Of a stretch of DNA of 64,000 nucleotides, positions 6,163 to 55,459 are shown piece after piece (position 1 is the stretch's first letter; each line of letters begins with the position of its first letter). Under the pieces are notes generated by a model, which made no database searches, was not told the origin of the DNA, and worked only from the letters and a program-made list of their open reading frames with translations. A program made the position numbers and the translations under genes. The stretch is from NCBI GenBank assembly GCA_947581765.1, contig CANPVU010000001.1:5513-69512 (forward strand), given 5' to 3'. The stretch comes from an uncultured Bacilli bacterium (GTDB taxonomy: Bacteria > Bacillota_I > Bacilli_A > RF39 > UBA660).

Positions 6163-6421
6163 TTAATCCCCTCTATTTAATTTTGAATAAAATTCACAAA
6201 GTGAACCCCTTTGTGAACCCCCCCTGTCAATGTGTATATAATACCACAAATTCGACAAAAGTCAAATCGTTTTTTTTGATTTTTTTTTAAGTTTACATTA
6301 ATTGATATTTTTTATTATATAAAGGCTAATTTAATGAATTCATAAATGGGTTCACTCAATGAGATAATTATTTTTAAAAAATCACTAAAAAAATTGCCTC
6401 TTAGTCGTTTATTAATTAGAT
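6163..6421. promoter_or_regulatory. Divergent promoter region between two cassettes
   Basis: AT-rich 259-bp gap between divergent operons. Palindrome TTCACAAAG-N7-CTTTGTGAA at 6193-6217. GTGAACCC appears twice (6201-6208, 6213-6220), which reads GGGTTCAC on the minus strand. ATAAAT-GGGTTCACT at 6342-6356 sits upstream of the plus-strand operon. Confidence 0.5.
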
Positions 6422-6940
6422 ATGGTGAAAAAAATGAAAAAAAATTTTAGAATTGAGTTTCATGTTCACACAATTGCATCTAAAGATAGTTTGCTTACAA
6501 AATGGTTTATGCTTTTTATGTTAAAAATTAAAAAGATAAATGCTATTGCTATAACAGATCATAATGAGATTAAAGGTGCACTTAAATATAAAGATTTCTT
6601 CAAAAAGAAGAATATTGATGTCATTGTTGGCGAAGAGATTTTTACAGCTGATGGAGAAATAATTGGTCTATTTTTGAAAAGAAAAATTCAAGAAGGAATG
6701 AGTGCAATTGATACTGTGAAAGAAATAATTAATCAAAATGGATTTGTTTATATTCCACATCCATATGATGAAAAAAGAAAAGATACTGTATTAACAAAAA
6801 AAGCATTACAAGAAATATATAAATATGTTGACTTTATTGAAGTCCACAATGGTAGAAACATATCTTACGAATTTTCAGAAAAACAAAATGAAATCGCAAA
6901 TGATTTTACTTTAAGAAAAGTTGTTGGAAATTTTTTTTAA
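6422..6940 (+). CDS. PHP-domain metal-dependent phosphoesterase (short form)
   Basis: N-terminal FHVHTIASKDS and ITDHNEI His/Asp metal-binding motifs of the PHP family. Could be a CpsB-like phosphatase. 172 aa is short for the family. Confidence 0.5.
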   Translation: MVKKMKKNFRIEFHVHTIASKDSLLTKWFMLFMLKIKKINAIAITDHNEIKGALKYKDFFKKKNIDVIVGEEIFTADGEIIGLFLKRKIQEGMSAIDTVKEIINQNGFVYIPHPYDEKRKDTVLTKKALQEIYKYVDFIEVHNGRNISYEFSEKQNEIANDFTLRKVVGNFF

Positions 6941-8070
6941 TAATTAGATTAATTACATTGTAAAGAGGTACATAAATGAAAATAGCAATGATAGGTCATA
7001 AGAGAATACCCTCACGTGAAGGTGGAGTTGAAATTGTTGTAGAAGAATTATCAACTAGAATGGTTCAACTTGGTAACGAAGTTACTTGCTACAATAGACG
7101 TGGTAAACATGTATTAGATAAAAATGAGAAGATTAAAAAATTAAAAGAATATAAAGGTATAAAAATAAAAGAAGTATTAACAATTGATAAAAAAGGTTTA
7201 GCAGCTATGACATCTTCTTTTTTTGGAACATTTAAAATACTTTTTTCTAATGCAGAAATAGTACATTACCATGCCGAAGGTCCATGTGCCATGATTCCAA
7301 TAATTAAACTTTTCTCTAGAAAAAAAGTAATTGCAACAATTCATGGATTAGATTGGCAAAGAGCTAAATGGAAAAATGGCTTTGCCTCCAAATATATAAA
7401 ATTTGGTGAAAAAATGGCTGCTAAGTATGCAGATGAAATAATTGTACTTAGTGAAAACGTAAAAAAATATTTCAAAGAAACATACAACAGGGATACAAAC
7501 TTTATACCTAATGGAGTTTCTAAACCAGAAATAAAAGAAGCAAAAATCATAAATGAGAAATATGGATTAAGAAAAAATGACTACATACTTTTTTTGGGAA
7601 GAATTGTTCCAGAAAAAGGAATTCATTATTTAATTGATGCATTTAACAAAATTAAAACAAACAAAAAATTAGTTATTGCTGGCGGTGCTAGTGATACTAA
7701 TGAATATTATTCCGAGTTAAAAGAAAAATCAGAAAATAATAAAAACATTATATTTACCGGTTTTATTCAAGGGCAAGAATTGGAAGAACTATATAGCAAT
7801 GCATACATATATGTTTTACCAAGTGATTTAGAAGGTATGCCTCTTTCACTACTTGAAGCAATGAGTTATGGAAATTGTTGCCTAACTTCTGATATAGAGG
7901 AATGTGCTACTGTAATAAAAGATAATGGATTAACATTTAAAAAATCAAATATTGAAGATTTAAAAAATAAACTTCAAAAATTATTAGATAAAGAAGACAT
8001 TGTTATTAAGTATAAAACTAATGCTCAAGATTATATTCTAAATAAATATAACTGGGATGACGTTGTTATT
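6901..8070. repeat. Inverted repeat A, left copy (about 1.17 kb, near-identical)
   Basis: By-eye alignment: 6901-8070 matches the reverse complement of about 28365-29535. The match covers the last ~40 nt of the PHP gene, the intergenic RBS and about 1085 nt of the GT4 gene. One indel was seen in the T-run. Confidence 0.8.
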
Positions 8071-8100
8071 AAAACTTTAAAGATTTATGAAAATAAATAA
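6976..8100 (+). CDS. Glycosyltransferase family 4, copy 1 of a duplicated gene
   Basis: EGMPLSLLEAMSYGNCCLTSD motif. Residues 1 to about 362 are identical to the gene at 28335-29456 on the opposite strand. Only the last 12 aa differ. Confidence 0.8.
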   Translation: MKIAMIGHKRIPSREGGVEIVVEELSTRMVQLGNEVTCYNRRGKHVLDKNEKIKKLKEYKGIKIKEVLTIDKKGLAAMTSSFFGTFKILFSNAEIVHYHAEGPCAMIPIIKLFSRKKVIATIHGLDWQRAKWKNGFASKYIKFGEKMAAKYADEIIVLSENVKKYFKETYNRDTNFIPNGVSKPEIKEAKIINEKYGLRKNDYILFLGRIVPEKGIHYLIDAFNKIKTNKKLVIAGGASDTNEYYSELKEKSENNKNIIFTGFIQGQELEELYSNAYIYVLPSDLEGMPLSLLEAMSYGNCCLTSDIEECATVIKDNGLTFKKSNIEDLKNKLQKLLDKEDIVIKYKTNAQDYILNKYNWDDVVIKTLKIYENK

Positions 8101-8109
8101 TATTTTGAA

Positions 8110-9195
8110 AGGAAGATTCTCATGGCAGAGAAAAAATTAAACGGAACCGTAATAGTTACTTATAGATGTAATGCTAGATGTACTATGTGTAATAGATATA
8201 AATGTCCTTCAAAACCTGAAGAAGAACTTAGTGTTGAAACAATAAAAAAATTACCTAAAATGTATTTTACAAACATAACAGGTGGAGAACCATTCATAAG
8301 AGAAGATTTACCAGATATAGTACGAGAATTATATAAAAAATCTGATCGTATTGTTATATCAACTAATGGTTTTTTTACAGATAGAATTATTAAATTATGT
8401 GAAGAATTTCCTAATGTTGGAATTAGAATATCAATTGAAGGATTAGAAGAAACAAATAATAAAATTAGAGGATTAGATGATGGATTTAATAAAGGATATT
8501 CAACACTAAAAAAACTTGTTGAAATGAAACATCCAGATGTAGGATTTGGAATGACTGTACAAGATGCTAATGCAAAAGATTTAGTTGAACTATATAAATT
8601 ATCTGATGAATTAAATATGGAATTTGCAACAGCATCCTTACATAATAGTTTCTATTTTGTAGAGGCAAAAAACATTATTCATGATAGACCAATGGTAGCA
8701 AAAGAATTTGAAAAATTAATTAATGAACTTTTAAAGTCTAACTCTCCAAAAAAATGGTTTAGAGCATACTTTAATCATGGATTAATTAATTATATTTATG
8801 GTCAAAAACGTTTGTTACCATGTGATATGGCATTTGATACATTTTTCATAGACCCATATGGTGATGTAATGCCTTGTAATGGAACTAAAGACAAAGAAAT
8901 AATGGGAAATTTAAATGAACAAACTTGGGAAGAACTTTGGAATTCAGAGAAAGCAGAAAGAGTAAGAAATAAAGTACGACATTGTGATAGGCAATGTTGG
9001 ATGATTGGATCTGTTTCTCCAGCAATGCACAAATATATATGGAAACCAGCATGGTGGGTATTTAGACATAAGTTTTTAAAATTTTTTAAACAAAATAAAT
9101 ATTCAATGTATGAAAACAAAATTGTTAGAGATTTTAAAGATGGAAAAGTTAGCAAGGAACAATTGGATAAATGTAGTACATGTGATATGAATTGT
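8110..9195. repeat. Inverted repeat B, left copy (about 1.09 kb, a few percent diverged)
   Basis: Matches the reverse complement of about 24855-25912. A few substitutions (K/R, S/T, Q/E) and differing upstream RBS context. Confidence 0.75.
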
Positions 9196-9309
9196 GTAGT
9201 AAATAATGGATTATCTACTGCTTCACTTGAACAATTAAAAAATAAAACTGGTGAAGAAATTGTTAATGCAGATATAGAAAAACAATTTAAGAATTTTGGT
9301 GATAATTAA
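8122..9309 (+). CDS. Radical SAM / SPASM-domain protein, copy 1
   Basis: CNARCTMC (Cx3Cx2C) at residues 16-23. C-terminal Cys-rich region (CDRQCW...CSTCDMNC) consistent with an auxiliary Fe-S (SPASM/twitch) cluster. Residues 1 to about 355 are near-identical to 24786-25889 (-). Confidence 0.8.
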   Translation: MAEKKLNGTVIVTYRCNARCTMCNRYKCPSKPEEELSVETIKKLPKMYFTNITGGEPFIREDLPDIVRELYKKSDRIVISTNGFFTDRIIKLCEEFPNVGIRISIEGLEETNNKIRGLDDGFNKGYSTLKKLVEMKHPDVGFGMTVQDANAKDLVELYKLSDELNMEFATASLHNSFYFVEAKNIIHDRPMVAKEFEKLINELLKSNSPKKWFRAYFNHGLINYIYGQKRLLPCDMAFDTFFIDPYGDVMPCNGTKDKEIMGNLNEQTWEELWNSEKAERVRNKVRHCDRQCWMIGSVSPAMHKYIWKPAWWVFRHKFLKFFKQNKYSMYENKIVRDFKDGKVSKEQLDKCSTCDMNCVVNNGLSTASLEQLKNKTGEEIVNADIEKQFKNFGDN

Positions 9310-11147
9310 TGAATGTATTTAAGAAATTAAATTATGAGTATTTTTCTTTTGATATATTTGACACATTATTATATAGGAAAATATCACCTAATGAAATACA
9401 TAATTTAGTAGAAAAAAAGCTTATTAAAATTGATAAAAAATTTTTAAATCATGCATCAAAAAGATTAGTCGCAGAAAAAAAAGCACAAAAATCTGAAAAA
9501 ATTGAAGCGACAATATATGAGATTTATGACTATATATCTGATTATAGTAAAGATGAAAAACAAATTGCAATAAAGTTGGAAATTGAAACTGAAATTGAAA
9601 ATTTGTATCCAAATCTAAAATTGAAACAAAAAATTAATAATCTAAAAAAAGATGGCAAAAAAATAATTATAATTTCGGATATGTATTATACAAAAGAGAT
9701 ATTAGAAAAAATCTTAAAGTTTTTTAATTTTGAATTTGATTATCTATTTGTTTCATCTGATATACAACTTAGAAAACATAATGGTAAGATTTTTAAATAT
9801 ATTATTAAAAAACTGGCTATACCCAAAAACAAAATGATTCATATTGGTGATAATAAAATTAGTGATTATATTATGCCGAAATTAAATGGAATAAAAAGTA
9901 TTTTATGGAAAAATAAACAGGATAAACATTTAAAAAAGTTGATAAATTTTAAAGGAGATTATAAAAAATTATATCAATTTATTTCTGATAAGAAAGTTGA
10001 TACCTATTTTGAATATATTGGATATGCTTATTTTGGGCCATTATTATTTGGCTTTTGTAATTGGATACATAGTAAAATAGAACTGGAAAAATTGGATAGT
10101 ATTTGTTTTTTATCAAGAGATGGGCAAATAGTAAAAAAAGCTTATTCATTAATCTATGATGAGGATTATCCTTATTTCTTGGCATCAAGAAGATCGTTAA
10201 CTGTTCCACTATTAGAAAACGCAAAAGAAATGAAAGATATATTATCAATAGTTCCATATATAAAAAAATATGAGGAAATATCTGATTTTTTAAAAAAAAT
10301 TGGAATTGAAAATAAAGAAATAGAAAATATTCTTATTAACAAATATGGAAAAACAATTAATCGAAATTTATTATGTTCTGATGAAGGAAATGATATTTTT
10401 AATATTGTGAAAAGCGAAATGTACAAAAATGCAGCCAATGAACAGATGCAAGCAAGAAAATATATTGAGAAAAACATGAAAAAAGGATTAATCGGGTTAG
10501 TTGATATTGGTTGGTATGGAACAATGCAAAAATCACTAACTGATTTATGCAATTTATTTGATTTAAAAATTGATTTCTATGGATTGTATTTAGGATTACT
10601 TAAAAAAGACAATTATGATTCAAACAAAGCGGACGGTTATATTTACTCATATAATAAAAATAAAAAATATGATTCTAATTTAATATATGGATTTAATGGA
10701 TTGATTGAATTGATGTTTACAGCAGACCATGGTTCTGCAAAAAAATATTTTTCAAAAAATGAAAATGTAATGTGTGAGCTTGAACCAGAAAAAGGAGAAT
10801 ATAGTACTTTCGTTCAGCAAGTTCAGAGTGGTGCTTTGCAATTTATTGAAGAATATAAAAAATCAAAATTAAATTTTAATATCAATTGGATAAAATGTTA
10901 TGCATGTATGGAGGATTTACTTACAAATCCTACTATTTCAGAATGTTATTTATTAGGTGATTTAAAATTTTATGATGCATACTTTGAAAAAATAATTCAA
11001 TATAATGGTTTATTAGATTTTGTAAAACATCCAAGAAAAAATATAAAATTATTTTTAAAATCAAATTGGAAGATTGGATATTTAAAAGAAATGTTTGTTT
11101 TTTTAAACTCTAAAGAAATATATAAAATTATTAATAAATTGAAATGA
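9309..11147 (+). CDS. HAD-like hydrolase domain protein with large C-terminal domain of unknown function
   Basis: N-terminal FDIFDTLL (motif I-like), IIISDMY (motif II), HIGDNKISD (GDxxxD motif IV). The C-terminal ~400 aa are not recognised. ATG overlaps the rSAM stop (TAATG). Confidence 0.5.
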   Translation: MNVFKKLNYEYFSFDIFDTLLYRKISPNEIHNLVEKKLIKIDKKFLNHASKRLVAEKKAQKSEKIEATIYEIYDYISDYSKDEKQIAIKLEIETEIENLYPNLKLKQKINNLKKDGKKIIIISDMYYTKEILEKILKFFNFEFDYLFVSSDIQLRKHNGKIFKYIIKKLAIPKNKMIHIGDNKISDYIMPKLNGIKSILWKNKQDKHLKKLINFKGDYKKLYQFISDKKVDTYFEYIGYAYFGPLLFGFCNWIHSKIELEKLDSICFLSRDGQIVKKAYSLIYDEDYPYFLASRRSLTVPLLENAKEMKDILSIVPYIKKYEEISDFLKKIGIENKEIENILINKYGKTINRNLLCSDEGNDIFNIVKSEMYKNAANEQMQARKYIEKNMKKGLIGLVDIGWYGTMQKSLTDLCNLFDLKIDFYGLYLGLLKKDNYDSNKADGYIYSYNKNKKYDSNLIYGFNGLIELMFTADHGSAKKYFSKNENVMCELEPEKGEYSTFVQQVQSGALQFIEEYKKSKLNFNINWIKCYACMEDLLTNPTISECYLLGDLKFYDAYFEKIIQYNGLLDFVKHPRKNIKLFLKSNWKIGYLKEMFVFLNSKEIYKIINKLK

Positions 11148-21184: not shown

Positions 21185-22366
21185 TTATAATCTATTTTTA
21201 ATTTTAAATTTAATATTACTAAATTTTTTTCTTAATTTCATTTTAATTTCTTGATTTTTTGTACCTCTACAATACATTTTTAAAAATTTTTTCTTTAATT
21301 CACAATAAGCTTTTAATGCATCATCCTTATATGGATAATAGTATAGTTCATCATATCTAACTATGCTATTTCTGTCTGTATCATAATATGTTTCAATTAA
21401 TATGTTATAATTTTCTTCTGGATCATAACTTAAATCATAAAGTTCTTCAACATTTGTTTCTTTATTATATATATATTTAAATCGCTCACCAATAATTGCA
21501 GTTTTTCTATGTGGTTGCATATAGTATGCAGTGTCAACAATTGTAAATTTTCTTTCAATGATTTTATTATTCAATATTAATTCAACTAAATCCAAATGCG
21601 AAGTTAAAAAATCAACACTTTTTATATTATCAATTCTAGGAGTTATCAATGGAATACAAACTATTGGTTCATAAACGTGAAATCCATAACCTACCAGGCC
21701 CTTATGCATGTTCATATGTCCATGATCAGTTGTTAGGTAAATGTTATCATCACCTACCATTTTTCTTACAAAACCAACAATATTATCAAAATCCTCCATA
21801 TCATCCATATAAGAATTTCTACCTTTTAATATATGTGGAAGATGCATCCAAATAAATACAGGCTTAGATAAATCAATAGAATTTAGTTCAGTATAAATTT
21901 TATTATAGGTTTCTTCCATTTTTTTATCATTTCTTATTATTTTTTTCTCTGCATCTTTCTTTTTATGTGAGCCAGCTGGTTGTGCAATATCAATGTTATG
22001 TATAATTGTTTTATTTTCGTCACCAAATTCACGTACATATTTCCATGCCATGTCCATCCAAGTTTTGTCCCATATTAAATGGCATATATATCCCTTTTTT
22101 TGTAATATGTCAAAAATACTATTAAATTCATTTTTCAAAACAGGTTTATAAGTTTTTCTGCTTGAGAACTCATATGGATACTTTCCTGTTAAAAAAGAAC
22201 TCATTGACATAGATGTAGATGATGCTGTTGTGTAATGCCTTTTGAAAACTGTTCCATTATGTGCTAATGTATCGATATTTGGTGTATTAAATAATTTGTT
22301 ACCATATATTGGTAAAGACTCTTTTGACATACAATCTTTTGTTAGCAAAAAAATAATTTTTTTCAT
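21185..22366 (-). CDS. Sulfatase-fold (alkaline phosphatase superfamily) protein, probable phosphotransferase/hydrolase
   Basis: FNTPNIDTLAHNGTVFKRHYT...LTGKYP is the sulfatase N-terminal fold. The C/S-x-P-x-R formylglycine motif is absent (TSMSMSSF). No transmembrane segment. Confidence 0.55.
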   Translation of the reverse strand: MKKIIFLLTKDCMSKESLPIYGNKLFNTPNIDTLAHNGTVFKRHYTTASSTSMSMSSFLTGKYPYEFSSRKTYKPVLKNEFNSIFDILQKKGYICHLIWDKTWMDMAWKYVREFGDENKTIIHNIDIAQPAGSHKKKDAEKKIIRNDKKMEETYNKIYTELNSIDLSKPVFIWMHLPHILKGRNSYMDDMEDFDNIVGFVRKMVGDDNIYLTTDHGHMNMHKGLVGYGFHVYEPIVCIPLITPRIDNIKSVDFLTSHLDLVELILNNKIIERKFTIVDTAYYMQPHRKTAIIGERFKYIYNKETNVEELYDLSYDPEENYNILIETYYDTDRNSIVRYDELYYYPYKDDALKAYCELKKKFLKMYCRGTKNQEIKMKLRKKFSNIKFKIKNRL

Positions 22367-24749: not shown

Positions 24750-24785
24750 ATGACAATTTTAGTCATATTTTTTCAATTATCATAC

Positions 24786-25889
24786 TTATTCATCAGGCAA
24801 TCCATTTTTTATAACACAATTCATATCACATGTACTACATTTATCTAATTCTTCCTTGGTAACTTTTCCGTCTTTAAAATCTCTAACAATTTTGTTTTCA
24901 TACATTGAATATTTATTTTGTTTAAAAAATCTTAAAAACTTATGTCTAAATACCCACCATGCTGGTTTCCATATATATTTGTGCATTGCTGGAGAAACAG
25001 ATCCAATCATCCAACATTGCCTATCACAATGTCGTACTTTATTTCTTACTCTTTCTGCTTTCTCTGAATTCCAAAGTTCTTCCCAAGTTTGTTCATTTAA
25101 ATTTCCCATTATTTCTTTGTCTTTAGTTCCATTACAAGGCATTACATCACCATATGGGTCTATGAAAAATGTATCAAATGCCATATCACATGGTAACAAA
25201 CGTTTTTGACCATAAATATAATTAATTAATCCATGATTAAAGTATGCTCTAAACCATTTTTTTGGAGAGTTAGACTTTAAAAGTTCATTAATTAATTTTT
25301 CAAATTCTTTTGCTACCATTGGTCTATCATGAATAATGTTTTTTGCCTCTACAAAATAGAAACTATTATGTAAGGATGCTGTTGCAAATTCCATATTTAA
25401 TTCATCAGATAATTTATATAGTTCAACTAAATCTTTTGCATTAGCATCTTGTACAGTCATTCCAAATCCTACATCTGGATGTTTCATTTCAACAAGTTTT
25501 TTTAGTGTTGAATATCCTTTATTAAATCCATCATCTAATCCTCTAATTTTATTATTTGTTTCTTCTAATCCTTCAATTGATATTCTAATTCCAACATTAG
25601 GAAATTCTTCACATAATTTAATAATTCTATCTGTAAAAAAACCATTAGTTGATATAACAATACGATCAGATTTTTTATATAATTCTCGTACTATATCTGG
25701 TAAATCTTCTCTTATGAATGGTTCTCCACCTGTTATGTTTGTAAAATACATTTTAGGTAATTTTTTTATTGTTTCAACACTAAGTTCTTCTTCAGGTTTT
25801 GAAGGACATTTATATCTATTACACATAGTACATCTAGCGTTACATCTATAAGTAACTATTACGGTTCCGTTTAACTTTTTCTCTGCCAT
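24786..25889 (-). CDS. Radical SAM / SPASM-domain protein, copy 2
   Basis: MAEKKLNGTVIVTYRCNARCTMCNRY..., near-identical to 8122-9309 over about 355 aa. Distinct 13-aa C-terminal tail. The ORF-track N-terminal extension MILM is probably not used. Confidence 0.8.
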   Translation of the reverse strand: MAEKKLNGTVIVTYRCNARCTMCNRYKCPSKPEEELSVETIKKLPKMYFTNITGGEPFIREDLPDIVRELYKKSDRIVISTNGFFTDRIIKLCEEFPNVGIRISIEGLEETNNKIRGLDDGFNKGYSTLKKLVEMKHPDVGFGMTVQDANAKDLVELYKLSDELNMEFATASLHNSFYFVEAKNIIHDRPMVAKEFEKLINELLKSNSPKKWFRAYFNHGLINYIYGQKRLLPCDMAFDTFFIDPYGDVMPCNGTKDKEIMGNLNEQTWEELWNSEKAERVRNKVRHCDRQCWMIGSVSPAMHKYIWKPAWWVFRHKFLRFFKQNKYSMYENKIVRDFKDGKVTKEELDKCSTCDMNCVIKNGLPDE

Positions 25890-25912
25890 GAGAATCACCT
25901 TTCTTTTTATTA
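24855..25912. repeat. Inverted repeat B, right copy
   Basis: Reverse complement matches 8110-9195. Confidence 0.75.
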
Positions 25913-25941
25913 ATTTTGTTATAAAAATATATTTACATTAA

Positions 25942-27111
25942 TTAATTATTATTTTTAAATTCATTTAAATACTTATTAGAAATTACATCCCAGCTATATT
26001 TTTTTACAGCAATATCCCTAGATTTTTTACATATTTTTTTTCTTTCTTGTTCATTTAATATGTAATTTTTTATTAAATTATCAAAACTTTCTTGATTTTC
26101 ATAAAATAAAATTACTTTTTTTAAATCATCTGATACTTCTAATATGTTTTTTTTGTTCATTATTACTGGTAATCCGCACGACATCGCCTCTAATATAACT
26201 AAACTAAATGCTTCAGCTGTAGATGGAAAGATAAAAGCTTTAGCACTGTTATAAAATTTATTTATTTGTTCACCAGGTTGTAGTTCTCCAACATACTCAA
26301 CTTTATTTTTAAGATTATTATTATACACATAAGTATCTATTGCATCTTTATACTTACTATCAATAATTCCACCGGCATATAAATATTTATATCTCTCATC
26401 GTCTTGTAGAAGTTTTGTTAAATTTTTAATAGCTCCTAATTGGTTTTTTCGTTCGCATACTGATCCAGATTGAAAAAACACAAACTTTTCTTGATTACTG
26501 TTTATTTCCTTATATATTTCAGTATTAACCCCATTATCAATTTGTACTAACCTTTTTTCATCTATACCTAAATGATTAATAAAATGATTTGCAGTAATAT
26601 TATTTAGGACAAATACTTTATCAGCTTTTTTGATAGAATAAACCTCTTGAAAATATTTTTTTCTTATGATTGAGGAAATTTTTTCCCACTCATTATTCCA
26701 TATATAACTATGAACTGTATAGAATAAATGTACTCTCTTTCTTATTTTTTTAGAAGTCATAATAAGAAAGAAAAACATATTATATTGATTATGAAAATGT
26801 ATATACAAATTTTCTTTTGAAAATTTTATTTCTTTTTTCAAAGATTTTGCTAAAGATAATGAGTATAGTACTCTTTTAAATTTATGTAAAATTCCCAAAG
26901 TTGTATCTTTTTTTCTAAAACATTTTGGAATATTCACTTCTCTAATTTTTAAATTTGTTTTTTTTCTATTTTCGTCTTTAACATCAAATATTTCATAATT
27001 GATTTTTTTGTTTTGAAAAGATTTTGATAACTCTTCTACTACTATTTCAGTAGCAGCTCCCATATTTGCTGGAATTGAGGTGTAACCAGTTCCTACTTCG
27101 ATTATTTTCAT
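25942..27111 (-). CDS. Glycosyltransferase family 4
   Basis: FPSTAEAFSLVILEAMSCGLPVI motif. Confidence 0.7.
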   Translation of the reverse strand: MKIIEVGTGYTSIPANMGAATEIVVEELSKSFQNKKINYEIFDVKDENRKKTNLKIREVNIPKCFRKKDTTLGILHKFKRVLYSLSLAKSLKKEIKFSKENLYIHFHNQYNMFFFLIMTSKKIRKRVHLFYTVHSYIWNNEWEKISSIIRKKYFQEVYSIKKADKVFVLNNITANHFINHLGIDEKRLVQIDNGVNTEIYKEINSNQEKFVFFQSGSVCERKNQLGAIKNLTKLLQDDERYKYLYAGGIIDSKYKDAIDTYVYNNNLKNKVEYVGELQPGEQINKFYNSAKAFIFPSTAEAFSLVILEAMSCGLPVIMNKKNILEVSDDLKKVILFYENQESFDNLIKNYILNEQERKKICKKSRDIAVKKYSWDVISNKYLNEFKNNN

Positions 27112-27126
27112 AAATTTATCACTACC

Positions 27127-28326
27127 TTAAATATTTTTATATAAGCTTATTAATTTTTCCGCATAATTTTTTATTGTAACAACTTTATTATTTTTACAAT
27201 TTTTAGAATATCTTTCTAACTTTTGTTTATCATTCCACAACATTAAAATTTTATTTTTTAATTCTGTTTTATTTTTTGCTTCAAATATTTCTCCATTTAT
27301 ACCTTCATTAATTAATTCTGGAATTCCACCCATATTAGAACCAATAACTGGAGTTCCACACATTATTGATTCAATCACGGAAAATGGGCAATTTTCATAC
27401 CATTCAGAGGGGCAAATACTAATTTTAGCTTCTGCAATTAAGCTTTCAAGCTCCTTTCCACTTTTAAATCCAACAAACTCAGCATTAGTAATTTTTTGAA
27501 TTTTATTTTCTAAAGGTCCATATCCAGCAAAAACAAATTTAATATTTTTTAACTCTTTAGCTACTTCAATTAAAGTTTCTACCCCTTTATCTTTACATAA
27601 TTTTCCAAAATAAATTATATAGTCTTTTTTTTCATAATTATTAGTTTCAATTTTTTTATCAACATAATTATGAATGACAATTGTTTTATTCTTAAATAAA
27701 TCACACGTATCCAATTTACTTTTCATAAAATAACTAGGACATATTATTTTATCAACATAATTATATGTTTTTCTTTTATGCCAATAAAAACTATCAAGCA
27801 TTGCTATTAAACTTTTGATTCTAGAATTTTTCATACACTTACTTTTAAAACAATTTATATATTTTCCATTTAAACATTTTTCACATGGATTGATATTATT
27901 ATCAAATAATCCGTGACTTGGGCAAACTAATTGATAATCATGTGCAACATAAAAAACTTTTATTTTTTTATTCTTTTTTTTGTATATTCCTATAGCATCT
28001 ATAATTGATGGTGTAAGATGATATTCTATATTGTTCAATATAACTAAATTTGGTTCATAAACATTAAGTAATCTAATCATTTTTTTCTTTGCTTCTTTGT
28101 TGTTTATCATGCTTTTTACCTGAAAAATATTTTTAAATGTTTTGGGTGAAAAATCTTTTTCGGAAACATATAAATTATAATCATTCTTTAATATATTTTT
28201 TGAATTTTTCATTCCAAAATATTGAACCTCATGACCTTGTAATTTAAAAAAATTGCCTAGTTTAATTACATAAGTTTCAGCACCACCTTTTTGGTATAGG
28301 AACTTATTAACTAATAAAATTTTCAT
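27127..28326 (-). CDS. Glycosyltransferase family 4
   Basis: ICPSEWYENCPFSVIESIMCGTPVIGSNMGGIPELI. Confidence 0.7.
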   Translation of the reverse strand: MKILLVNKFLYQKGGAETYVIKLGNFFKLQGHEVQYFGMKNSKNILKNDYNLYVSEKDFSPKTFKNIFQVKSMINNKEAKKKMIRLLNVYEPNLVILNNIEYHLTPSIIDAIGIYKKKNKKIKVFYVAHDYQLVCPSHGLFDNNINPCEKCLNGKYINCFKSKCMKNSRIKSLIAMLDSFYWHKRKTYNYVDKIICPSYFMKSKLDTCDLFKNKTIVIHNYVDKKIETNNYEKKDYIIYFGKLCKDKGVETLIEVAKELKNIKFVFAGYGPLENKIQKITNAEFVGFKSGKELESLIAEAKISICPSEWYENCPFSVIESIMCGTPVIGSNMGGIPELINEGINGEIFEAKNKTELKNKILMLWNDKQKLERYSKNCKNNKVVTIKNYAEKLISLYKNI

Positions 28327-28334
28327 ATTAGCAC

Positions 28335-29456
28335 CTACTTTTTATATAAATTTAATGTTATTTGTACAACATCATCCCAGTTATATTTATTTAGAATATA
28401 ATCTTGAGCATTAGTTTTATACTTAATAACAATGTCTTCTTTATCTAATAATTTTTGAAGTTTATTTTTTAAATCTTCAATATTTGATTTTTTAAATGTT
28501 AATCCATTATCTTTTATTACAGTAGCACATTCCTCTATATCAGAAGTTAGGCAACAATTTCCATAACTCATTGCTTCAAGTAGTGAAAGAGGCATACCTT
28601 CTAAATCACTTGGTAAAACATATATGTATGCATTGCTATATAGTTCTTCCAATTCTTGCCCTTGAATAAAACCGGTAAATATAATGTTTTTATTATTTTC
28701 TGATTTTTCTTTTAACTCGGAATAATATTCATTAGTATCACTAGCACCGCCAGCAATAACTAATTTTTTGTTTGTTTTAATTTTGTTAAATGCATCAATT
28801 AAATAATGAATTCCTTTTTCTGGAACAATTCTTCCCAAAAAAAGTATGTAGTCATTTTTTCTTAATCCATATTTCTCATTTATGATTTTTGCTTCTTTTA
28901 TTTCTGGTTTAGAAACTCCATTAGGTATAAAGTTTGTATCCCTGTTGTATGTTTCTTTGAAATATTTTTTTACGTTTTCACTAAGTACAATTATTTCATC
29001 TGCATACTTAGCAGCCATTTTTTCACCAAATTTTATATATTTGGAGGCAAAGCCATTTTTCCATTTAGCTCTTTGCCAATCTAATCCATGAATTGTTGCA
29101 ATTACTTTTTTTCTAGAGAAAAGTTTAATTATTGGAATCATGGCACATGGACCTTCGGCATGGTAATGTACTATTTCTGCATTAGAAAAAAGTATTTTAA
29201 ATGTTCCAAAAAAAGAAGATGTCATAGCTGCTAAACCTTTTTTATCAATTGTTAATACTTCTTTTATTTTTATACCTTTATATTCTTTTAATTTTTTAAT
29301 CTTCTCATTTTTATCTAATACATGTTTACCACGTCTATTGTAGCAAGTAACTTCGTTACCAAGTTGAACCATTCTAGTTGATAATTCTTCTACAACAATT
29401 TCAACTCCACCTTCACGTGAGGGTATTCTCTTATGACCTATCATTGCTATTTTCAT
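28335..29456 (-). CDS. Glycosyltransferase family 4, copy 2 of the duplicated gene
   Basis: Identical to 6976-8100 except the last ~12 aa. Confidence 0.8.
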   Translation of the reverse strand: MKIAMIGHKRIPSREGGVEIVVEELSTRMVQLGNEVTCYNRRGKHVLDKNEKIKKLKEYKGIKIKEVLTIDKKGLAAMTSSFFGTFKILFSNAEIVHYHAEGPCAMIPIIKLFSRKKVIATIHGLDWQRAKWKNGFASKYIKFGEKMAAKYADEIIVLSENVKKYFKETYNRDTNFIPNGVSKPEIKEAKIINEKYGLRKNDYILFLGRIVPEKGIHYLIDAFNKIKTNKKLVIAGGASDTNEYYSELKEKSENNKNIIFTGFIQGQELEELYSNAYIYVLPSDLEGMPLSLLEAMSYGNCCLTSDIEECATVIKDNGLTFKKSNIEDLKNKLQKLLDKEDIVIKYKTNAQDYILNKYNWDDVVQITLNLYKK

Positions 29457-29535
29457 TTATGTACCTCTTTACAATGTAATTAATCTAATTATTAAAAAAA
29501 ATTTCCAACAACTTTTCTTAAAGTAAAATCCTTAG
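28365..29535. repeat. Inverted repeat A, right copy (includes a 40-nt remnant of the PHP gene 3' end)
   Basis: Reverse complement of 29457-29535 reproduces GATTTTACTTTAAGAAAAGTTGTTGGAAATTTTTTTTAATAATTAG...AAGAGGTACATAAATG found at 6901-6978. Confidence 0.8.
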
Positions 29536-29650
29536 TGAAAAATAATTTAAATGATTAATAATAAAAACTCATAGTTTTCTTATGTTTAAGATAAAACTAT
29601 GAGTTTTTTCTATAATGGGTTCACTTTAAGAAAATTTTAAATATCATAAA
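29457..29650. promoter_or_regulatory. Divergent promoter region with 16-bp perfect inverted repeat and TATAAT-GGGTTCACT element
   Basis: AAAAACTCATAGTTTT (29563-29578), 14-nt spacer, AAAACTATGAGTTTTT (29593-29608), then TATAAT (29611-29616) and GGGTTCACT (29617-29625). This is about 26 bp upstream of the 29651 start. Confidence 0.5.
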
Positions 29651-40673: not shown

Positions 40674-41597
40674 ATGATTTATATGAGAAAGAAAAAAGAA
40701 AATAAAGAATATTTAGGATATTATATAAATGAATTTATAAATATATCCAAGATAAGGAATAAGGAGTCTACTTATTCAAATTATTTATATACTATTAATT
40801 CTAGAATGATTGTATTATATAATACTAAGATAAAAAATATAGATATTAAGTTTATAAATGAGTATACTAATTATTTATTTGATAAAGGTTTATGTAGTAA
40901 AAGTATTAAAGATACTTTAATACTTTTAAATGAAATATTAAAATTAGCAGATATACATATTAATATACCTATGCCTAAAGTAATTAAAAAAGAAATTTCA
41001 GTATTTAATGAAGATGAACAAATAGAACTTGAAAAATACCTTTTAAATAGTCCTAATAGCGTTAATTTAGGTATATACCTATCACTTTATACTGGAATTA
41101 GAATTGGTGAACTATGCGCCTTAAAATGGGAAAATATAGACCTTATTAATAATAAGATAACTATTAAAAAAACAATGTTAAGAATTAAAGATACAAACCC
41201 TAATAATAGAAACAAAACTAAAGTAATAGTAGATTCACCAAAAAGTACATCATCTATAAGAGATATTCCACTACCACCTTTTATATCATCTATGTTATCT
41301 AAAATAACTAATATATTACCAGAATACTATTTACTTACAAATAGTATATCTTATATAGAACCTAGATTATTATATAAAAAATATAAACAAATACTTAGTG
41401 AATTAAACTTATCTAAATATAACTTTCATACAATGAGACATACATTTGCTACACGTTGTATAAACCAAAACTTCCCTATTAAAATAGTCTCAGAAATATT
41501 AGGACACTCTAGTGTTAAAATAACACTAGATAGATATGTACATCCTAATTATAATGAAAAAGTAAAAATGATGAATAATTTACAAAAATTATATTAA
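40674..41597 (+). CDS. Tyrosine site-specific recombinase (phage integrase / Xer family), stand-alone
   Basis: C-terminal HTMRHTFATRCINQNFPIKIVSEILGHSSVKITLDRYVH (R...HxxR...Y catalytic box) and an N-terminal SAM-like core-binding domain. Probable start at the second ATG (40683), preceded by GAGGA. Confidence 0.8.
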   Translation: MIYMRKKKENKEYLGYYINEFINISKIRNKESTYSNYLYTINSRMIVLYNTKIKNIDIKFINEYTNYLFDKGLCSKSIKDTLILLNEILKLADIHINIPMPKVIKKEISVFNEDEQIELEKYLLNSPNSVNLGIYLSLYTGIRIGELCALKWENIDLINNKITIKKTMLRIKDTNPNNRNKTKVIVDSPKSTSSIRDIPLPPFISSMLSKITNILPEYYLLTNSISYIEPRLLYKKYKQILSELNLSKYNFHTMRHTFATRCINQNFPIKIVSEILGHSSVKITLDRYVHPNYNEKVKMMNNLQKLY

Positions 41598-41654: not shown

Positions 41655-42338
41655 TTACTTAGATCCCTTACGTGATAATACTACTTTAAATGTCTTAAAA
41701 AATATTTTTACATCCATTTTAAATGATACATGATTAGAATAATACTTTTCTAACTCTAATCTCTTATCAAATGTAGTATCACTTCTTCCAGATACTTGCC
41801 AGTATCCAGTAAGACCAGGTTTAGTTTTAACTATATCATTATAGTAAACACCCATATCAAATTTTTCTCTTGGTAGGTAAGGTCTATTTCCTATTAAGGA
41901 CATATCCCCTTTTAATACATTAATTAATTGTGGTAATTCATCTAAAGATGCTATTCTAAGTATTTTCCCCATCTTAGTTATTCTAGGATCATTTTCCAAC
42001 TTTTTATTTATTTTATATTCTTGTGCCAACTCTTTGTTATTTTTAAGAATTTTTTCTAACTCATCATCAGCATTTACAATCATAGTTCTAAATTTATAAA
42101 ATTTAAATAATACCCCATTTTTCCCAATTCTTTTTTGTGTAAAAAATATCGAATGAAAATCCCCAGATAGCATATACGATATCTTTACAATAATAGAAAT
42201 AGGAATTAAAAGTAAACATCCAATAAATGAAAATATAATATCAAAAATTCTCTTTGATATTAAATATAATCTTTGTTTTGAAATACTAGTTGTTTTTACA
42301 TCCATACCAACAACATCAAACTGTGATATTTCATTCAT
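41655..42338 (-). CDS. Initiating undecaprenyl-phosphate sugar-phosphate transferase (Bac_transf family, small form)
   Basis: KRIFDIIFSFIGCLLL...FYKFRTM...DELPQLINVLKGDMSLIGNRP...PGLTGYWQVSGRS, the canonical bacterial sugar transferase C-terminal domain. Confidence 0.8.
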   Translation of the reverse strand: MNEISQFDVVGMDVKTTSISKQRLYLISKRIFDIIFSFIGCLLLIPISIIVKISYMLSGDFHSIFFTQKRIGKNGVLFKFYKFRTMIVNADDELEKILKNNKELAQEYKINKKLENDPRITKMGKILRIASLDELPQLINVLKGDMSLIGNRPYLPREKFDMGVYYNDIVKTKPGLTGYWQVSGRSDTTFDKRLELEKYYSNHVSFKMDVKIFFKTFKVVLSRKGSK

Positions 42339-42487: not shown

Positions 42488-44023
42488 TTACTCATTATAT
42501 ACAGATATTATTTTACTTCTTGCTTTGTCTATTTCAGCTTGAGATGGTTCCATAACATATGTCCATGTTTCAGGTATTGTATAAGTATATCCTCTTGAAT
42601 CTTTTCCATCTACACTTTGCTTAACAATTTTCCAAGCACTCATATTATTTAACTGATTTTTTACTAATTTTTGAATAACACTTTTTGGCATATCAGTTAG
42701 ATAAAATGAACTAAATGATTGTAATAATTCATCATATTTTAACAACAATGATTTGTTTTTAAACATTTTATTCATAATAGCTTCTAATACTTGTTGTTGA
42801 TTTAATACTCTATGTCTATCTCCGCCTTTATATGCATATCTTTCTCTTGCATATGCTAAGGCATGTTCACCGTCTAAGTGATTCCATCCTTTAGGAACTA
42901 CCCATCCTTTAATATGGTATGAATTAAATGTTATATCTGAGTATACATCTACTCCCCCTATTAAGTCTACTAATTTAACTACAGAAGTAAATCCTACTTT
43001 AACAGTATAATCAATTTTTATATCAAATATACTCTCTATAGTCTTTTTAGTCATATTCATTCCATACATACCACTATGTGTTAACTTATCTCTTAACCCT
43101 GTTGTACCAGGTAATTGTATATAATAATCTCTTGGTATACTAGTAAGTAATATAGTCCTTGTACTAGGATTTAATGTCATAATCATATTAACATCAGATA
43201 AAGAATTATTTACTATATTAGTAGTTCTACTATCACTACCAGATATTAATATATTTATTCCATTAGCATTACTTTTTTGTTTTACAGTATTAGAATTATT
43301 ACTAGTACTAGTTTTATTACTACTATTACTATTACTTACATCATTACTAGTATTATTACTATTACTGTTACTATTACTATTATTATTGCTTACATCATTA
43401 TTAATAATAATTTTATCTTCATATTCATAAGAATAAATAATTCTAATATTTGAAGCAGAATCACTAACTACTTCCTCTAATAAATCTAAGTAAACACTAT
43501 TAGATACAAATGAATCTATCTTATTATTTTTTAAATCCTTATATAATTGACTTACATCTTTATAACTTTTAAATTGAATATTTATTTTACTTTTAATCTC
43601 ACTTAAATAATCAGGACTAATAGTACTATTATCTATATATCCCATAGTTTTATTATTTAATGATTCAATCTTATCATAATTACTATCCTTTAATACTACT
43701 ACATTATATGCTGATTTCTCAACTTCGTAATTATTAAATCCATTATCTAAAAAATCATTAGTACTATCTACATACTTAATACCTATACCACATAATATAA
43801 TTAATATTACATATATAATACCACTAACTATTTTAGTCCATATCTTCTTAACAAATATACCTATAATACCAATTATATTTAATATAACAATACCTGCTAT
43901 TATTAAGTATAAATATTTATTAGGAATCATATCAAGATCTATTAACTCTTTTACAAGCCAACCAGAAAGAACTAATACTACAAATACTATAATTATTCTT
44001 AATATAGTCCATATCTTCTTCAT
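42488..44023 (-). CDS. LytR-CpsA-Psr (LCP) family glycopolymer-to-peptidoglycan ligase
   Basis: N-terminal transmembrane segments, Asn/Ser-rich linker, then INILISGSDSR...VNMIMTLNPSTRTILLTSIPRDYY LCP core. Confidence 0.75.
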   Translation of the reverse strand: MKKIWTILRIIIVFVVLVLSGWLVKELIDLDMIPNKYLYLIIAGIVILNIIGIIGIFVKKIWTKIVSGIIYVILIILCGIGIKYVDSTNDFLDNGFNNYEVEKSAYNVVVLKDSNYDKIESLNNKTMGYIDNSTISPDYLSEIKSKINIQFKSYKDVSQLYKDLKNNKIDSFVSNSVYLDLLEEVVSDSASNIRIIYSYEYEDKIIINNDVSNNNSNSNSNSNNTSNDVSNSNSSNKTSTSNNSNTVKQKSNANGINILISGSDSRTTNIVNNSLSDVNMIMTLNPSTRTILLTSIPRDYYIQLPGTTGLRDKLTHSGMYGMNMTKKTIESIFDIKIDYTVKVGFTSVVKLVDLIGGVDVYSDITFNSYHIKGWVVPKGWNHLDGEHALAYARERYAYKGGDRHRVLNQQQVLEAIMNKMFKNKSLLLKYDELLQSFSSFYLTDMPKSVIQKLVKNQLNNMSAWKIVKQSVDGKDSRGYTYTIPETWTYVMEPSQAEIDKARSKIISVYNE

Positions 44024-46042: not shown

Positions 46043-47590
46043 TTAATAAAGTGATTGTGAATACTCAATTGGTTCATATACAGTTCCTGTAAACCATACC
46101 TCACCTGAGTTTTTATCTCTAACTAAGAATAAATATGGTTTATCAAAAGTTAAATCTATACTTTCTATTGGAACTTCATATAAATAATCAAATCCACATT
46201 TAGAAGATCCTAACCCTTCAAGTGTAACTGGATCTGCTTCCTTAATTCCATCATTTGAAAAATCTACATCTACTTTGTGCTCTATACTATCTAAATAAAC
46301 CTTACTATCTATTAAATTAGATAAATTAGCCTTCTTACTATCAAAAACATCAGTTATACCTAATTTATTTAAATCTTCCTCTAAATTAATTCTAGATAAA
46401 ATATCAAATACTGGAATAGTTCCTTCTACTTTTGTAATTACTCCATCTTTAAAGCTATCTAACTCTATACCTTTAAGATTATTAATTAAATTATTTATAT
46501 CTGAAGAATTAATACCATCAATATATTTTTTCAAACTTACCTTTGTTGGCATAATACCTACATATTGTAATGTAATACCATTATACTCTTTTAAATCTTT
46601 AGCAAATACCTTTACGTTATCATCAGTATAAAACATAAAGTCAGTAGAACTAGTCACATCATCATAACCAATATTAATTTCTTGAAGATATTTATCTACA
46701 TATACTTTTGCAGGCATTTCTTTTGTAGGATCACCAGAACATGATTTTGGAGCACCCTCTTCTAACCATTTTTTATACTCATTAATTACATTTTGTCTTA
46801 TATTTTCCATACCTAAAGAATTAATAATATCATACCTATTAGCTACTGCTGATATTTTTACAGCCTTAGCCTCCATTGCATTATCATTAAACTTTAAATT
46901 AGTATAATCTTTTGCATTTAATGGTCCTATATACTCAAGAAACTTTCTATGGTGATAATTAATAAAATATGGTCTATCAGAATCTTGTATCTTATTTTCC
47001 CAATCCATATCTATAGCAAGTGTATTAAGTAAAACAAAATTCTTATCAGATATATCATCAACCATGTTATCAATTAAATTAAATGTTCTATTTCCAACCC
47101 AACTATTTATTTTATCTGATGTATTAAATGAATCATATATAACATCAGCATCATATTTATCTTTTATTGAACTAATATATTTACTCTTTATTTTATCTTT
47201 TAGGGAATCTCTAACAAATAAAGCATTTACAAAAGACATAGTCTCAGTATTTGTATATCTACCATAATCATAAGTACCTATAACATCAGTTATCTGTTTT
47301 TTACTATTACCAACAGATCCTTCCTGTAACATTTTTAGTGCATACTTAATAGCAATTGGACTATATGCCTTATTCTTCTCTTCATTTTCAAGTTTCAAAA
47401 AATATAAATCAAAATCTTGTAAACTATTACCATTTAATCTATATTTGGAACTTTCTTTATTAATCTTAATTGGGAGCAATAAACTTATCCCTAAAGCTAT
47501 AACAATAAACAATAATAATACAATTACTATTCTCATTATACTATTATATTTGTTATTATTAACAGTTTCAACATTTTGATCTTTTTCCAT
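46043..47590 (-). CDS. Serpin (serine protease inhibitor) with N-terminal membrane anchor
   Basis: C-terminal DKPYLFLVRDKNSGEVWFTGTVYEP matches the serpin signature (PFLFxIR...FxGRVxxP). Internal AIKYALKMLQEGSVGNSKKQI and NALFVRDSL resemble serpin helix A and the s3A region. One transmembrane segment near the N-terminus. Confidence 0.65.
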   Translation of the reverse strand: MEKDQNVETVNNNKYNSIMRIVIVLLLFIVIALGISLLLPIKINKESSKYRLNGNSLQDFDLYFLKLENEEKNKAYSPIAIKYALKMLQEGSVGNSKKQITDVIGTYDYGRYTNTETMSFVNALFVRDSLKDKIKSKYISSIKDKYDADVIYDSFNTSDKINSWVGNRTFNLIDNMVDDISDKNFVLLNTLAIDMDWENKIQDSDRPYFINYHHRKFLEYIGPLNAKDYTNLKFNDNAMEAKAVKISAVANRYDIINSLGMENIRQNVINEYKKWLEEGAPKSCSGDPTKEMPAKVYVDKYLQEINIGYDDVTSSTDFMFYTDDNVKVFAKDLKEYNGITLQYVGIMPTKVSLKKYIDGINSSDINNLINNLKGIELDSFKDGVITKVEGTIPVFDILSRINLEEDLNKLGITDVFDSKKANLSNLIDSKVYLDSIEHKVDVDFSNDGIKEADPVTLEGLGSSKCGFDYLYEVPIESIDLTFDKPYLFLVRDKNSGEVWFTGTVYEPIEYSQSLY

Positions 47591-55440: not shown

Positions 55441-55459
55441 TTCTATCTCCTAAACTACT

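Follow-up and report, generated by a model that had tools for sequence, protein, structure and literature searches.

Radical S-adenosylmethionine (SAM) enzymes that tailor sugars are established in the biosynthesis of aminoglycoside and nucleoside antibiotics. BtrN (a dehydrogenase), HygY and NeoN (epimerases), SpeY and BlsE (a decarboxylase) combine a radical SAM core with a short C-terminal Fe-S domain and abstract hydrogen from an unactivated sugar carbon, acting on soluble secondary-metabolite intermediates in actinomycetes and Bacillus. As far as the literature searched extends, such tailoring is not established in the assembly of cell-surface polysaccharides; radical SAM genes in capsule loci are mentioned as annotations only, for example in C. 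jejuni HS:19 (PMC8743553). Here, we analyse a radical SAM enzyme encoded in a stretch of 64,000 nucleotides from an uncultured Bacilli bacterium (contig CANPVU010000001.1, assembly GCA_947581765.1; hereafter, the window). It has the same core and short Fe-S domain as the antibiotic-pathway enzymes, and the chemistry we propose for it is the same. Unlike theirs, its family sits in the core of surface-polysaccharide loci and is found fused to GT4 glycosyltransferases. Our full-text literature search returned no paper on this family, and database names of its homologues offer nothing beyond 'radical SAM protein'. The best explanation of the evidence is that it serves as a core tailoring enzyme in a surface polysaccharide pathway of the Wzx/Wzy type and not as a maturase of peptides or proteins; that it works in a glycan pathway at all is very probable.

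Conserved gene neighbourhood and glycosyltransferase fusions

The gene lies at positions 8122..9309 (+), exactly where a preliminary description of the window had placed it, and encodes 395 aa from an ATG start preceded by a Shine-Dalgarno-like GGAAG sequence. A spacer of 21 nt separates it from the preceding gene, which encodes a DUF1972-type GT4 glycosyltransferase, here called GT4a (6976..8100, +; Pfam Glycos_transf_1, Glyco_transf_4 and DUF1972). At its other end, the stop codon overlaps the ATG of the next gene in a TAATG junction. A second copy of the enzyme gene is present in the window, and the region in which both copies lie is rich in glycopolymer genes, as described in the last section.

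Relatives of the enzyme, counted with one genome per species, were found in at least 584 stretches; the identity and context figures that follow refer to the best 80 of these. These 80 relatives are 83–91% identical to the enzyme (median 86%) and come from Clostridia, Bacilli, Lachnospiraceae, Ruminococcaceae, Acetivibrio, Blautia, a 'Tenericutes' metagenome-assembled genome (MAG) and a Bacteroides MAG, nearly all of them from gut or rumen samples. Pseudobutyrivibrio xylanivorans (82%) and Segatella copri DSM 18205 (81%) likewise carry homologues, on plasmid-like replicons, where the annotation goes no further than 'radical SAM protein'.

Apart from the enzyme, just three proteins of the window recur in the 80 loci. 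GT4a has a homologue in 75 of them (median identity 61%). GT4b, a second GT4 glycosyltransferase recognised by Pfam (27127..28326, −), has one in 71, with a median identity of 39%, usually encoded directly upstream of the radical SAM gene. The third is a small priming phosphoglycosyl transferase with a WbaP/RfbP-like Bac_transf catalytic domain (41655..42338, −; Pfam 7e-62), homologues of which are found upstream of the module in 55 loci at 50% identity; its match to the NCBIfam model WbaP_sugtrans (6e-79) reaches 266 bits, under the cut-off of 403. The usual gene order is priming transferase, GT4a, GT4b, radical SAM or, alternatively, priming transferase, GT4b, radical SAM, GT4a, with an optional hexapeptide or Acyl_transf_3 acyltransferase ahead of the radical SAM gene. 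Genes for LytR-CpsA-Psr (LCP), VanZ, Wzz and tyrosine-kinase proteins lie upstream of the module, and variable glycosyltransferases, pyruvyl transferases, Wzy and flippases lie downstream. LCP proteins attach polymer to the cell wall, and the window encodes one at 42488..44023 (−; Pfam 8e-38), homologues of which are found upstream in many of the related loci. This context places the enzyme within the conserved 5' core of loci of the Wzx/Wzy type. Among the common neighbour families of the related loci, no nucleotide-sugar synthesis gene was consistently linked, which fits the modification of a common sugar after its transfer.

Transferases of the Cps2T/WchF and GacB type, which are also DUF1972 GT4 proteins, add the second sugar to an undecaprenyl-diphosphate-linked first sugar, a role that fits the placement of GT4a directly after the priming transferase. 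Cps2T is the best NCBIfam match of GT4a and aligns over its full length (5.6e-36), albeit with 124 bits against a cut-off of 500, so that neither equivalence nor a rhamnose donor can be assumed for GT4a. Neither the window nor the set of common neighbour families showed any rml genes, and no radical SAM partner is known to us for the characterised Cps2T and GacB systems.

Gene fusions of the 'Rosetta stone' kind, which occur in both orders, are the strongest sign that the enzyme and GT4a act in concert. Three GT4a–radical SAM fusions of about 700 aa (P0275–P0277) retain the EX7E, CX3CX2C and GGEP motifs intact, and two fusions of the reverse order, of about 730 aa (P0280 and P0281, the latter from a Zixibacteria MAG), likewise have intact catalytic motifs. 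P0213 joins a GT2 glycosyltransferase to a radical SAM domain. In P0170, a radical SAM-like domain that lacks CX3CX2C is fused to a DUF1972 GT4 of the GT4a kind. Two metagenome contigs (L081, positions 6238–10154, and L082) carry an intact radical SAM gene, then a gene for a small FAD_binding_6 flavoprotein and then this degenerate radical SAM–GT4a fusion; to judge by its sequence, a catalytically dead radical SAM copy appears to have been kept there as a glycosyltransferase domain. In the clade at 51% identity to which these contigs belong, an FNR-like flavoprotein is encoded adjacently (L081 and L082) or, in P0265, fused as an FNR-like reductase to the twitch part of the enzyme, an arrangement consistent with a dedicated electron supply. 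More distant relatives (37–51% identity; P0138, P0158, P0170, P0213 and P0214) also adjoin GT4 or Wzy genes. The membership in a glycopolymer pathway that the preliminary description had proposed from the surrounding cassette is thus upheld by the same 5' module in nearly all 80 loci, by the setting of these distant relatives and by the GT4a fusions.

The enzyme itself is strongly conserved. Nonsynonymous divergence (dN) from the 80 loci is 0.06–0.14, while synonymous divergence (dS) is close to 1 or saturated (33 of the 80 comparisons gave no computable value). The host loci range from 24 to 42% in GC content, and third-position identity falls to 32–49% in hosts with 30–42% GC. Saturation of synonymous sites despite a low dN indicates long-term purifying selection and functional conservation. 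Recent horizontal transfer as the source of the roughly 90% identity was ruled out by the saturated synonymous sites together with the host-like base composition. Among 187 distinct close homologues, conservation reaches at least 99% at 232 of the 395 positions. When 1.84 billion cluster representatives were searched, 321 had E<1e-30, and a gap separated the tight group from the remainder: no further full-length relative exceeded about 53% identity, and most of the next-nearest ones are about 325 aa long and lack the C-terminal tail. Conservation at a housekeeping level amid freely diverging glycosyltransferases, together with the fusions, points to a common and chemically demanding modification in the conserved core of the polymers.

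Two open reading frames (ORFs) of 117 aa that run antisense inside the radical SAM genes (8802–9155, −, and 24856–25209, +) also register as 'conserved' in 34–35 related loci. The simplest explanation is that they are not genes and look conserved because the sense strand is so extremely constrained.

Domain architecture, auxiliary cysteines and family relationships

The preliminary description had proposed a radical SAM/SPASM enzyme with an N-terminal Cx3Cx2C motif, a C-terminal cysteine cluster and no methyltransferase or B12-binding domain. The Pfam Radical_SAM match (PF04055; E=1e-15, 58.8 bits against a cut-off of 29.5) and the SPASM match (PF13186; residues 234–292, E=4.7e-12, 46.5 bits against 21.5) are both far above chance. 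No further Pfam domain was detected at E up to 0.01, B12-binding and methyltransferase domains included. A cobalamin-dependent radical SAM methyltransferase was rejected on the lack of a Pfam B12-binding domain and of an N-terminal extension.

The CX3CX2C motif is read directly from residues 16–23, CNARCTMC (8167..8190, +), and its cysteines, C16, C20 and C23, are the predicted ligands of the SAM-cleaving [4Fe-4S] cluster. They are kept in all 187 close homologues and in 39–41 of the 42 full-length distant representatives that we used to compare cysteine patterns. Residues 53–58 read TGGEPF; GGEP is invariant among the close homologues, and in the wider family G54 and G55 remain invariant and E56 is at least 90% conserved. 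With all its catalytic motifs intact, the enzyme is predicted to be active. An AlphaFold2 model of copy 1 has a mean pLDDT of 88.8 and a pTM of 0.88, with pLDDT below 50 at residues 354–363 only.

The C-terminal Fe-S segment (8821..8997, +), delimited by the SPASM match and by cysteine conservation, contains C234, C252, C288 and C292 in the spacing C-x17-C ... C-x3-C. All four are invariant in the 187 close homologues, in agreement with the preliminary description, and are the predicted ligands of a single auxiliary cluster. A full SPASM domain has seven or eight conserved cysteines (CX9-15GX4C ... CX2CX5CX3C ... C) and two clusters, a pattern that the enzyme does not have. The features are those of a twitch domain: strands at residues 240–243 and 248–250 are followed by helices in a confidently modelled region, and the cysteines suffice for a single cluster. 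The SPASM-type Fe-S domain of the preliminary description therefore stands, and its full two-cluster reading does not; because four auxiliary cysteines suffice for one cluster, the domain looks twitch-like, with one predicted auxiliary cluster. A further motif in the tail, C351-x2-C354-x3-C358, was considered as a second cluster site and rejected, given that C351 (80%) and C358 (73%) are not conserved among the 187 homologues and only C354 is invariant. C28 is conserved in 33% of them. C354 belongs to an S-T-C-D motif (9175..9186, +) in a tail specific to this subfamily; S352, T353, C354 and D355 are each present in 187 of 187 sequences, in or beside the sole low-confidence stretch of the model.

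Comparison with the distant representatives offers a clue to the chemistry. In 27 of the 42, the four auxiliary cysteines are accompanied by a fifth at the position of residue 296 (C-x3-C-W-M-x-C), which is a cysteine in most distant relatives and an invariant glycine in the subfamily of the window. Seven representatives have lost all four auxiliary cysteines and retained the fifth, and in four the reverse holds. The four are thus gained or lost as a block and behave as one unit, as cluster ligands would, while Cys296, kept independently of them, behaves as expected of a catalytic residue. By analogy, Cys296 of the distant relatives recalls the hydrogen-donor cysteine of radical SAM sugar and peptide epimerases, and its presence or absence in the wider family echoes the epimerase/dehydrogenase switch of HygY, a twitch sugar epimerase in which, according to a title in the reference list of PMC10991966, loss of a single cysteine unmasks dehydrogenase activity. 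For the enzyme of the window, the combination of G296 with the C354 tail would be compatible with a dehydrogenase-type reaction via the auxiliary cluster, or with an epimerase whose hydrogen donor has been relocated; the analogy is suggestive only.

Between the Fe-S segment and the tail lies a cationic, aromatic-rich segment (residues 305–330; 9034..9111, +) with a net charge of +6 and W, F or Y at 10 of its 26 positions, modelled as a helix at residues 307–321. W312, within it, is near-invariant throughout the wider family. By its composition this segment may be a membrane-interface helix. In an amphipathicity test, the hydrophobic moment of the C-terminal helix was not among the highest of the protein.

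Profile searches, which the preliminary description had suggested for subfamily assignment, succeeded at the level of the two Pfam domains, both above their cut-offs, and not at the level of NCBIfam, where 43 matches were obtained and no model reached its curated cut-off. The best of them, TIGR03961 (PTO1314 family), aligns nearly end to end (enzyme residues 12–298 against positions 29–308 of the 332 in the model) with 86.7 bits against a cut-off of 306.05; the enzyme is not a member by score, and the family is itself functionally uncharacterised, so the match carries no functional information. Models of peptide maturases, haem enzymes, MoaA and HpnH follow, with E values from 1e-18 to 1e-9, and NF033640 (N_Twi_rSAM) scores 62 bits against a cut-off of 170. 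Foldseek searches against the PDB returned generic matches with TM scores of 0.5–0.66 (SkfB, BlsE, CteB, anSME, SuiB, DesII and MoaA) and yielded no functional assignment. BlsE, BtrN and SpeY are among the structure or profile matches, yet the likeness is generic (BlsE: profile 2e-18, residues 9–165; BtrN: profile 1e-12, N-terminal part only), and, judged by score, the enzyme does not belong to the BtrN, HygY, NeoN, BlsE or SpeY families. The judgement of the preliminary description that the exact chemistry cannot be inferred from sequence still holds.

Proposed reaction and competing explanations

We propose the following sequence of events. The WbaP-like priming transferase would load the first sugar phosphate onto undecaprenyl phosphate, and GT4a (Cps2T/WchF-like), usually together with GT4b, would extend this lipid-linked first sugar. 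The radical SAM enzyme would partner GT4a, physically or kinetically, on an early and conserved lipid-linked intermediate, and could be associated with the membrane through its cationic aromatic helix. Reductive cleavage of SAM would generate a 5'-deoxyadenosyl radical that takes a hydrogen from an unactivated sugar carbon. The resulting substrate radical would then be quenched from the opposite face, giving an epimer (a rare sugar), or be oxidised via the auxiliary cluster, giving a keto-sugar. The outcome would be an unusual residue in the conserved core of the polymer, made without a dedicated nucleotide-sugar pathway. The domain make-up, the intact motifs, the purifying selection, the gene module and the fusions are observed, whereas a sugar as substrate, its attachment to a lipid and the outcome of the reaction are inferred; for the chain as a whole, radical tailoring of a sugar at an early lipid-linked stage, we regard the case as evenly balanced.

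A more specific and tentative extension would make the enzyme the founding example of a widespread family of twitch radical SAM enzymes, coupled to glycosyltransferases, that edit glycan intermediates on their lipid carrier, converting a common core hexose into a rare sugar in situ, for instance by C5 epimerisation. L-altrose as well as L-iduronic acid, both formally C5 epimers of common sugars, have been reported from Butyrivibrio exopolysaccharides (PMC10794557, PMC4392319). We found no account in the literature of how these two sugars arise. A close homologue of the enzyme lies within an exopolysaccharide locus of Pseudobutyrivibrio xylanivorans, and a C5 epimerisation that turns D-galactose into L-altrose, or a uronic acid into L-iduronic acid, may serve as a lead.

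In gut Clostridia, Lachnospiraceae and Prevotellaceae, immune recognition, phage sensitivity and colonisation are shaped by capsules and wall polysaccharides. If the proposal is correct, this enzyme would be the first of the radical SAM type to have a defined step in Wzx/Wzy-dependent assembly of a capsule or cell-wall polysaccharide, and the residue it makes would mark the capsules of gut anaerobes with a conserved structural signature. Knowledge of the reaction would bring a new enzyme class into glycan biosynthesis, give a large family of capsule loci a marker gene and probably explain a rare sugar in the polysaccharides of anaerobes.

Several points weigh against this proposal. Neither an experiment nor a characterised homologue speaks for any particular reaction. 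No NCBIfam model matches at its cut-off, the best (PTO1314) scoring 87 against 306 bits; the structural matches, from SkfB, BlsE, CteB and anSME to DesII and MoaA (TM 0.5–0.66), are generic; and the closest solved relative by sequence, SkfB, modifies peptides. As for the cysteines, the seven representatives that keep Cys296 and lack the cluster ligands may form a single clade and hence record one evolutionary event, and the subfamily of the window lacks Cys296, so the epimerase analogy does not transfer to it directly. The argument for membrane association rests on the composition of one helix only. Finally, the fusions and the neighbourhood would be explained just as well if the enzyme supplied GT4a with an unusual nucleotide-sugar donor.

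This last point is the basis of the main rival explanation, which we consider rather unlikely though well short of dismissal: the substrate would be soluble, either a nucleotide sugar or another small precursor, and the enzyme would turn it into an unusual or labile donor that GT4a transfers at once, with the fusions as a means of channelling. Fusions in both orders and tight linkage to GT4a are what such channelling predicts, and comparable radical SAM enzymes (BlsE, DesII, viperin and MoaA) use nucleotide-linked substrates. However, neither a nucleotidyltransferase nor any other sugar-activation gene is consistently linked in the related loci, and the radical SAM gene usually follows GT4a and GT4b, bordering the variable region, instead of preceding them. 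The conserved cationic aromatic helix also hints, if only weakly, at membrane association.

The remaining explanations place the target outside the glycan, and even taken together (peptide maturation, sulfatase maturation, protein or lipid modification) they have only a small probability. Modification of GT4a itself, as a post-translational activation, or of the polyprenyl carrier lipid, by HpnH- or Tes-like chemistry, is improbable. Protein–protein contact with GT4a is suggested by the fusions, including the degenerate radical SAM-like domain carried on GT4a; HpnH and Tes are among the weak NCBIfam matches (HpnH at 7e-15 over nearly its full length), and GDGT-MAS is among the Foldseek matches. 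Yet 61 GT4a orthologues display the ordinary GT4 invariants and no invariant Cys, Ser or Gly target motif, and the similarity to HpnH and Tes is no greater than that to a dozen unrelated radical SAM families.

A maturase of ribosomally synthesised and post-translationally modified peptides (RiPPs) that merely happens to lie in polysaccharide loci is more improbable still. Such a role is brought to mind by SkfB, the sporulation killing factor maturase (PDB 6EFN), a twitch sactisynthase that is the best solved relative: the family profile matches its radical SAM core and twitch domain, that is, its catalytic part (residues 108–388, E=8.6e-32), Foldseek ranks it first (TM 0.57–0.59), and both proteins carry a single auxiliary-cluster domain after a partial TIM barrel. 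Moreover, most SPASM/twitch proteins with NCBIfam models are peptide maturases. Nevertheless, identity to SkfB is about 20%, and the enzyme lacks an N-terminal RiPP recognition element-like domain: its CX3CX2C motif begins at residue 16 and the alignment only at SkfB residue 108. The roughly 100 N-terminal residues of SkfB that are missing are what we take to be its peptide-recognition part. There is no precursor peptide gene, nor room for one in the flanks, given the 21-nt spacer upstream and the overlapping start downstream, and no family of small ORFs is conserved beside the gene in the 80 loci. The context is one of glycosyltransferases, in a conserved module and in fusions, and not a bacteriocin operon.

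An anaerobic sulfatase-maturating enzyme (anSME), the alternative named in the preliminary description, would turn a Cys or Ser of a neighbouring protein into formylglycine. The candidate substrate, a sulfatase-fold protein (21185..22366, −; Pfam Sulfatase 1.4e-18), indeed lies 2.4 kb from copy 2, as described. Solved anSMEs (PDB 4K36-4K39) share the radical SAM core and C-terminal Fe-S domain (Foldseek TM about 0.5, E about 1e-10; profile E=4e-11), but they have two auxiliary clusters and a protein substrate with a C/S-x-P-x-R motif. In the sulfatase-fold protein, T-S-M-S-M is found where S/C-x-P-x-R aligns in solved sulfatases, with a Thr at the formylglycine position and neither the Pro nor the Arg. 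With this motif missing, the protein present alongside the enzyme in just four of the 80 loci and no such neighbour beside copy 1, four auxiliary cysteines that provide for one cluster, no anSME model among the 25 NCBIfam families listed of the 43, and a score against the family profile below those of SkfB, CteB, BlsE, MoaA and BtrN, the anSME role is excluded for practical purposes, and with it the sulfatase-fold protein as a substrate. That protein is more likely a transferase or hydrolase of a phospho-substituent on the polymer than a sulfatase; the trio of Wzy, sulfatase-fold and GT32-like genes recurs in four related loci (L049, L054, L065 and L078).

The repeated module and other features of the window

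Copy 2 of the radical SAM gene lies at 24786..25889 (−) and encodes 367 aa from its ATG; in the ORF list it starts at GTG 25898. The two copies are held in inverted-repeat arms, 8115–9242 and 24769–25896, which are 98% complementary. They differ at two positions in their first 958 nt, their 3' ends then diverge, and copy 2 lacks the last 28 aa of copy 1. A second pair of arms, 28339–29538 and 6894–8093, is 99% complementary, with no differences in 1085 nt, and contains GT4a, whose second copy (28335..29456, −) is identified by this repeat identity. Across these repeats (6894–9242 and 24769–29538), differences pile up only at the 3' junctions. The preliminary description had reported two cassettes, each with the enzyme next to the same GT4. 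Two copies there are, and the adjacency is true of copy 1 only: between copy 2 and its GT4a lie two GT4 genes (25942–28326), namely GT4b and a cassette-specific GT4c (25942..27111, −; assigned by Pfam), which has homologues in 17 of the 80 loci at a median identity of 26%. Copy 1 is followed by the gene for a 612-aa protein with an N-terminal HAD-hydrolase domain recognised by Pfam (9309..11147, +). This is not a general partner, as it has a homologue in one of the 80 loci only (L080).

Homologous recombination between the repeats would invert 15–20 kb and swap which variable cassette follows which GT4a promoter region; the arrangement is possibly one for capsule switching. Near-identical inverted repeats are, in addition, well known to cause misassembly in metagenome contigs. 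The single other locus retrieved (L091, ENA contig NODE_154, 80,995 bp) has the same gene order around copy 1 and may come from the same sample. The gene for a tyrosine recombinase of the Phage_integrase family (40674–41597, +) separates the priming transferase/LCP operon from the glycopolymer cassettes, and its product could serve a DNA inversion that chooses the expressed cassette. Directly 5' of GT4a copy 1, an ORF of 172 aa (6422–6940, +) covers about half of the PHP profile and may be what is left of a truncated gene, such as one for a CpsB-like phosphatase; position 6894, inside the 3' end of this ORF, is where the repeat in common with copy 2 begins.

The cassette block spans positions 468–40623 and comprises at least four differently oriented glycopolymer cassettes in 40 kb, each with a flippase gene, a Wzy-like gene or both of its own. 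They further contain LicD pairs, TagF-like glycerophosphotransferases, TagD-like cytidylyltransferases and an IspD/TarI-like gene, along with a choline-kinase/nucleotidyltransferase fusion, a Stealth hexose-1-phosphoryl transferase and a pyruvyl transferase. A single priming transferase is visible within the window. In 16–25 of the 80 related loci, a polysaccharide pyruvyl transferase and then an FrhB-like Fe-S flavoprotein are encoded directly after the radical SAM gene (for example, L037, 10217–12550, and L086, 11214–13460). Such a pair might make reduced (lactyl or carboxyethyl) substituents instead of pyruvate ketals.

Beyond the glycopolymer region, an ORF at 58479–59291 (−) encodes the C-terminal part of a penicillin-binding transpeptidase (Pfam profile positions 120–298) with one PASTA domain. 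A large serine recombinase (59361–60950, −) directly adjoins this fragment, which suggests that the penicillin-binding protein gene has been interrupted by a mobile or developmentally excised element. A protein of 515 aa (46043–47590, −) has a C-terminal serpin domain (Pfam E=3e-37), an unusual protease inhibitor in a bacterium. Large surface proteins with Listeria-Bacteroides repeats and Big_2 domains are encoded at 51685–56839 (−) and 61269–64000 (−), and tandem DNA repeats at a spacing of 435–1242 nt, their copies 63–90% identical, extend over 61.4–64.0 kb.

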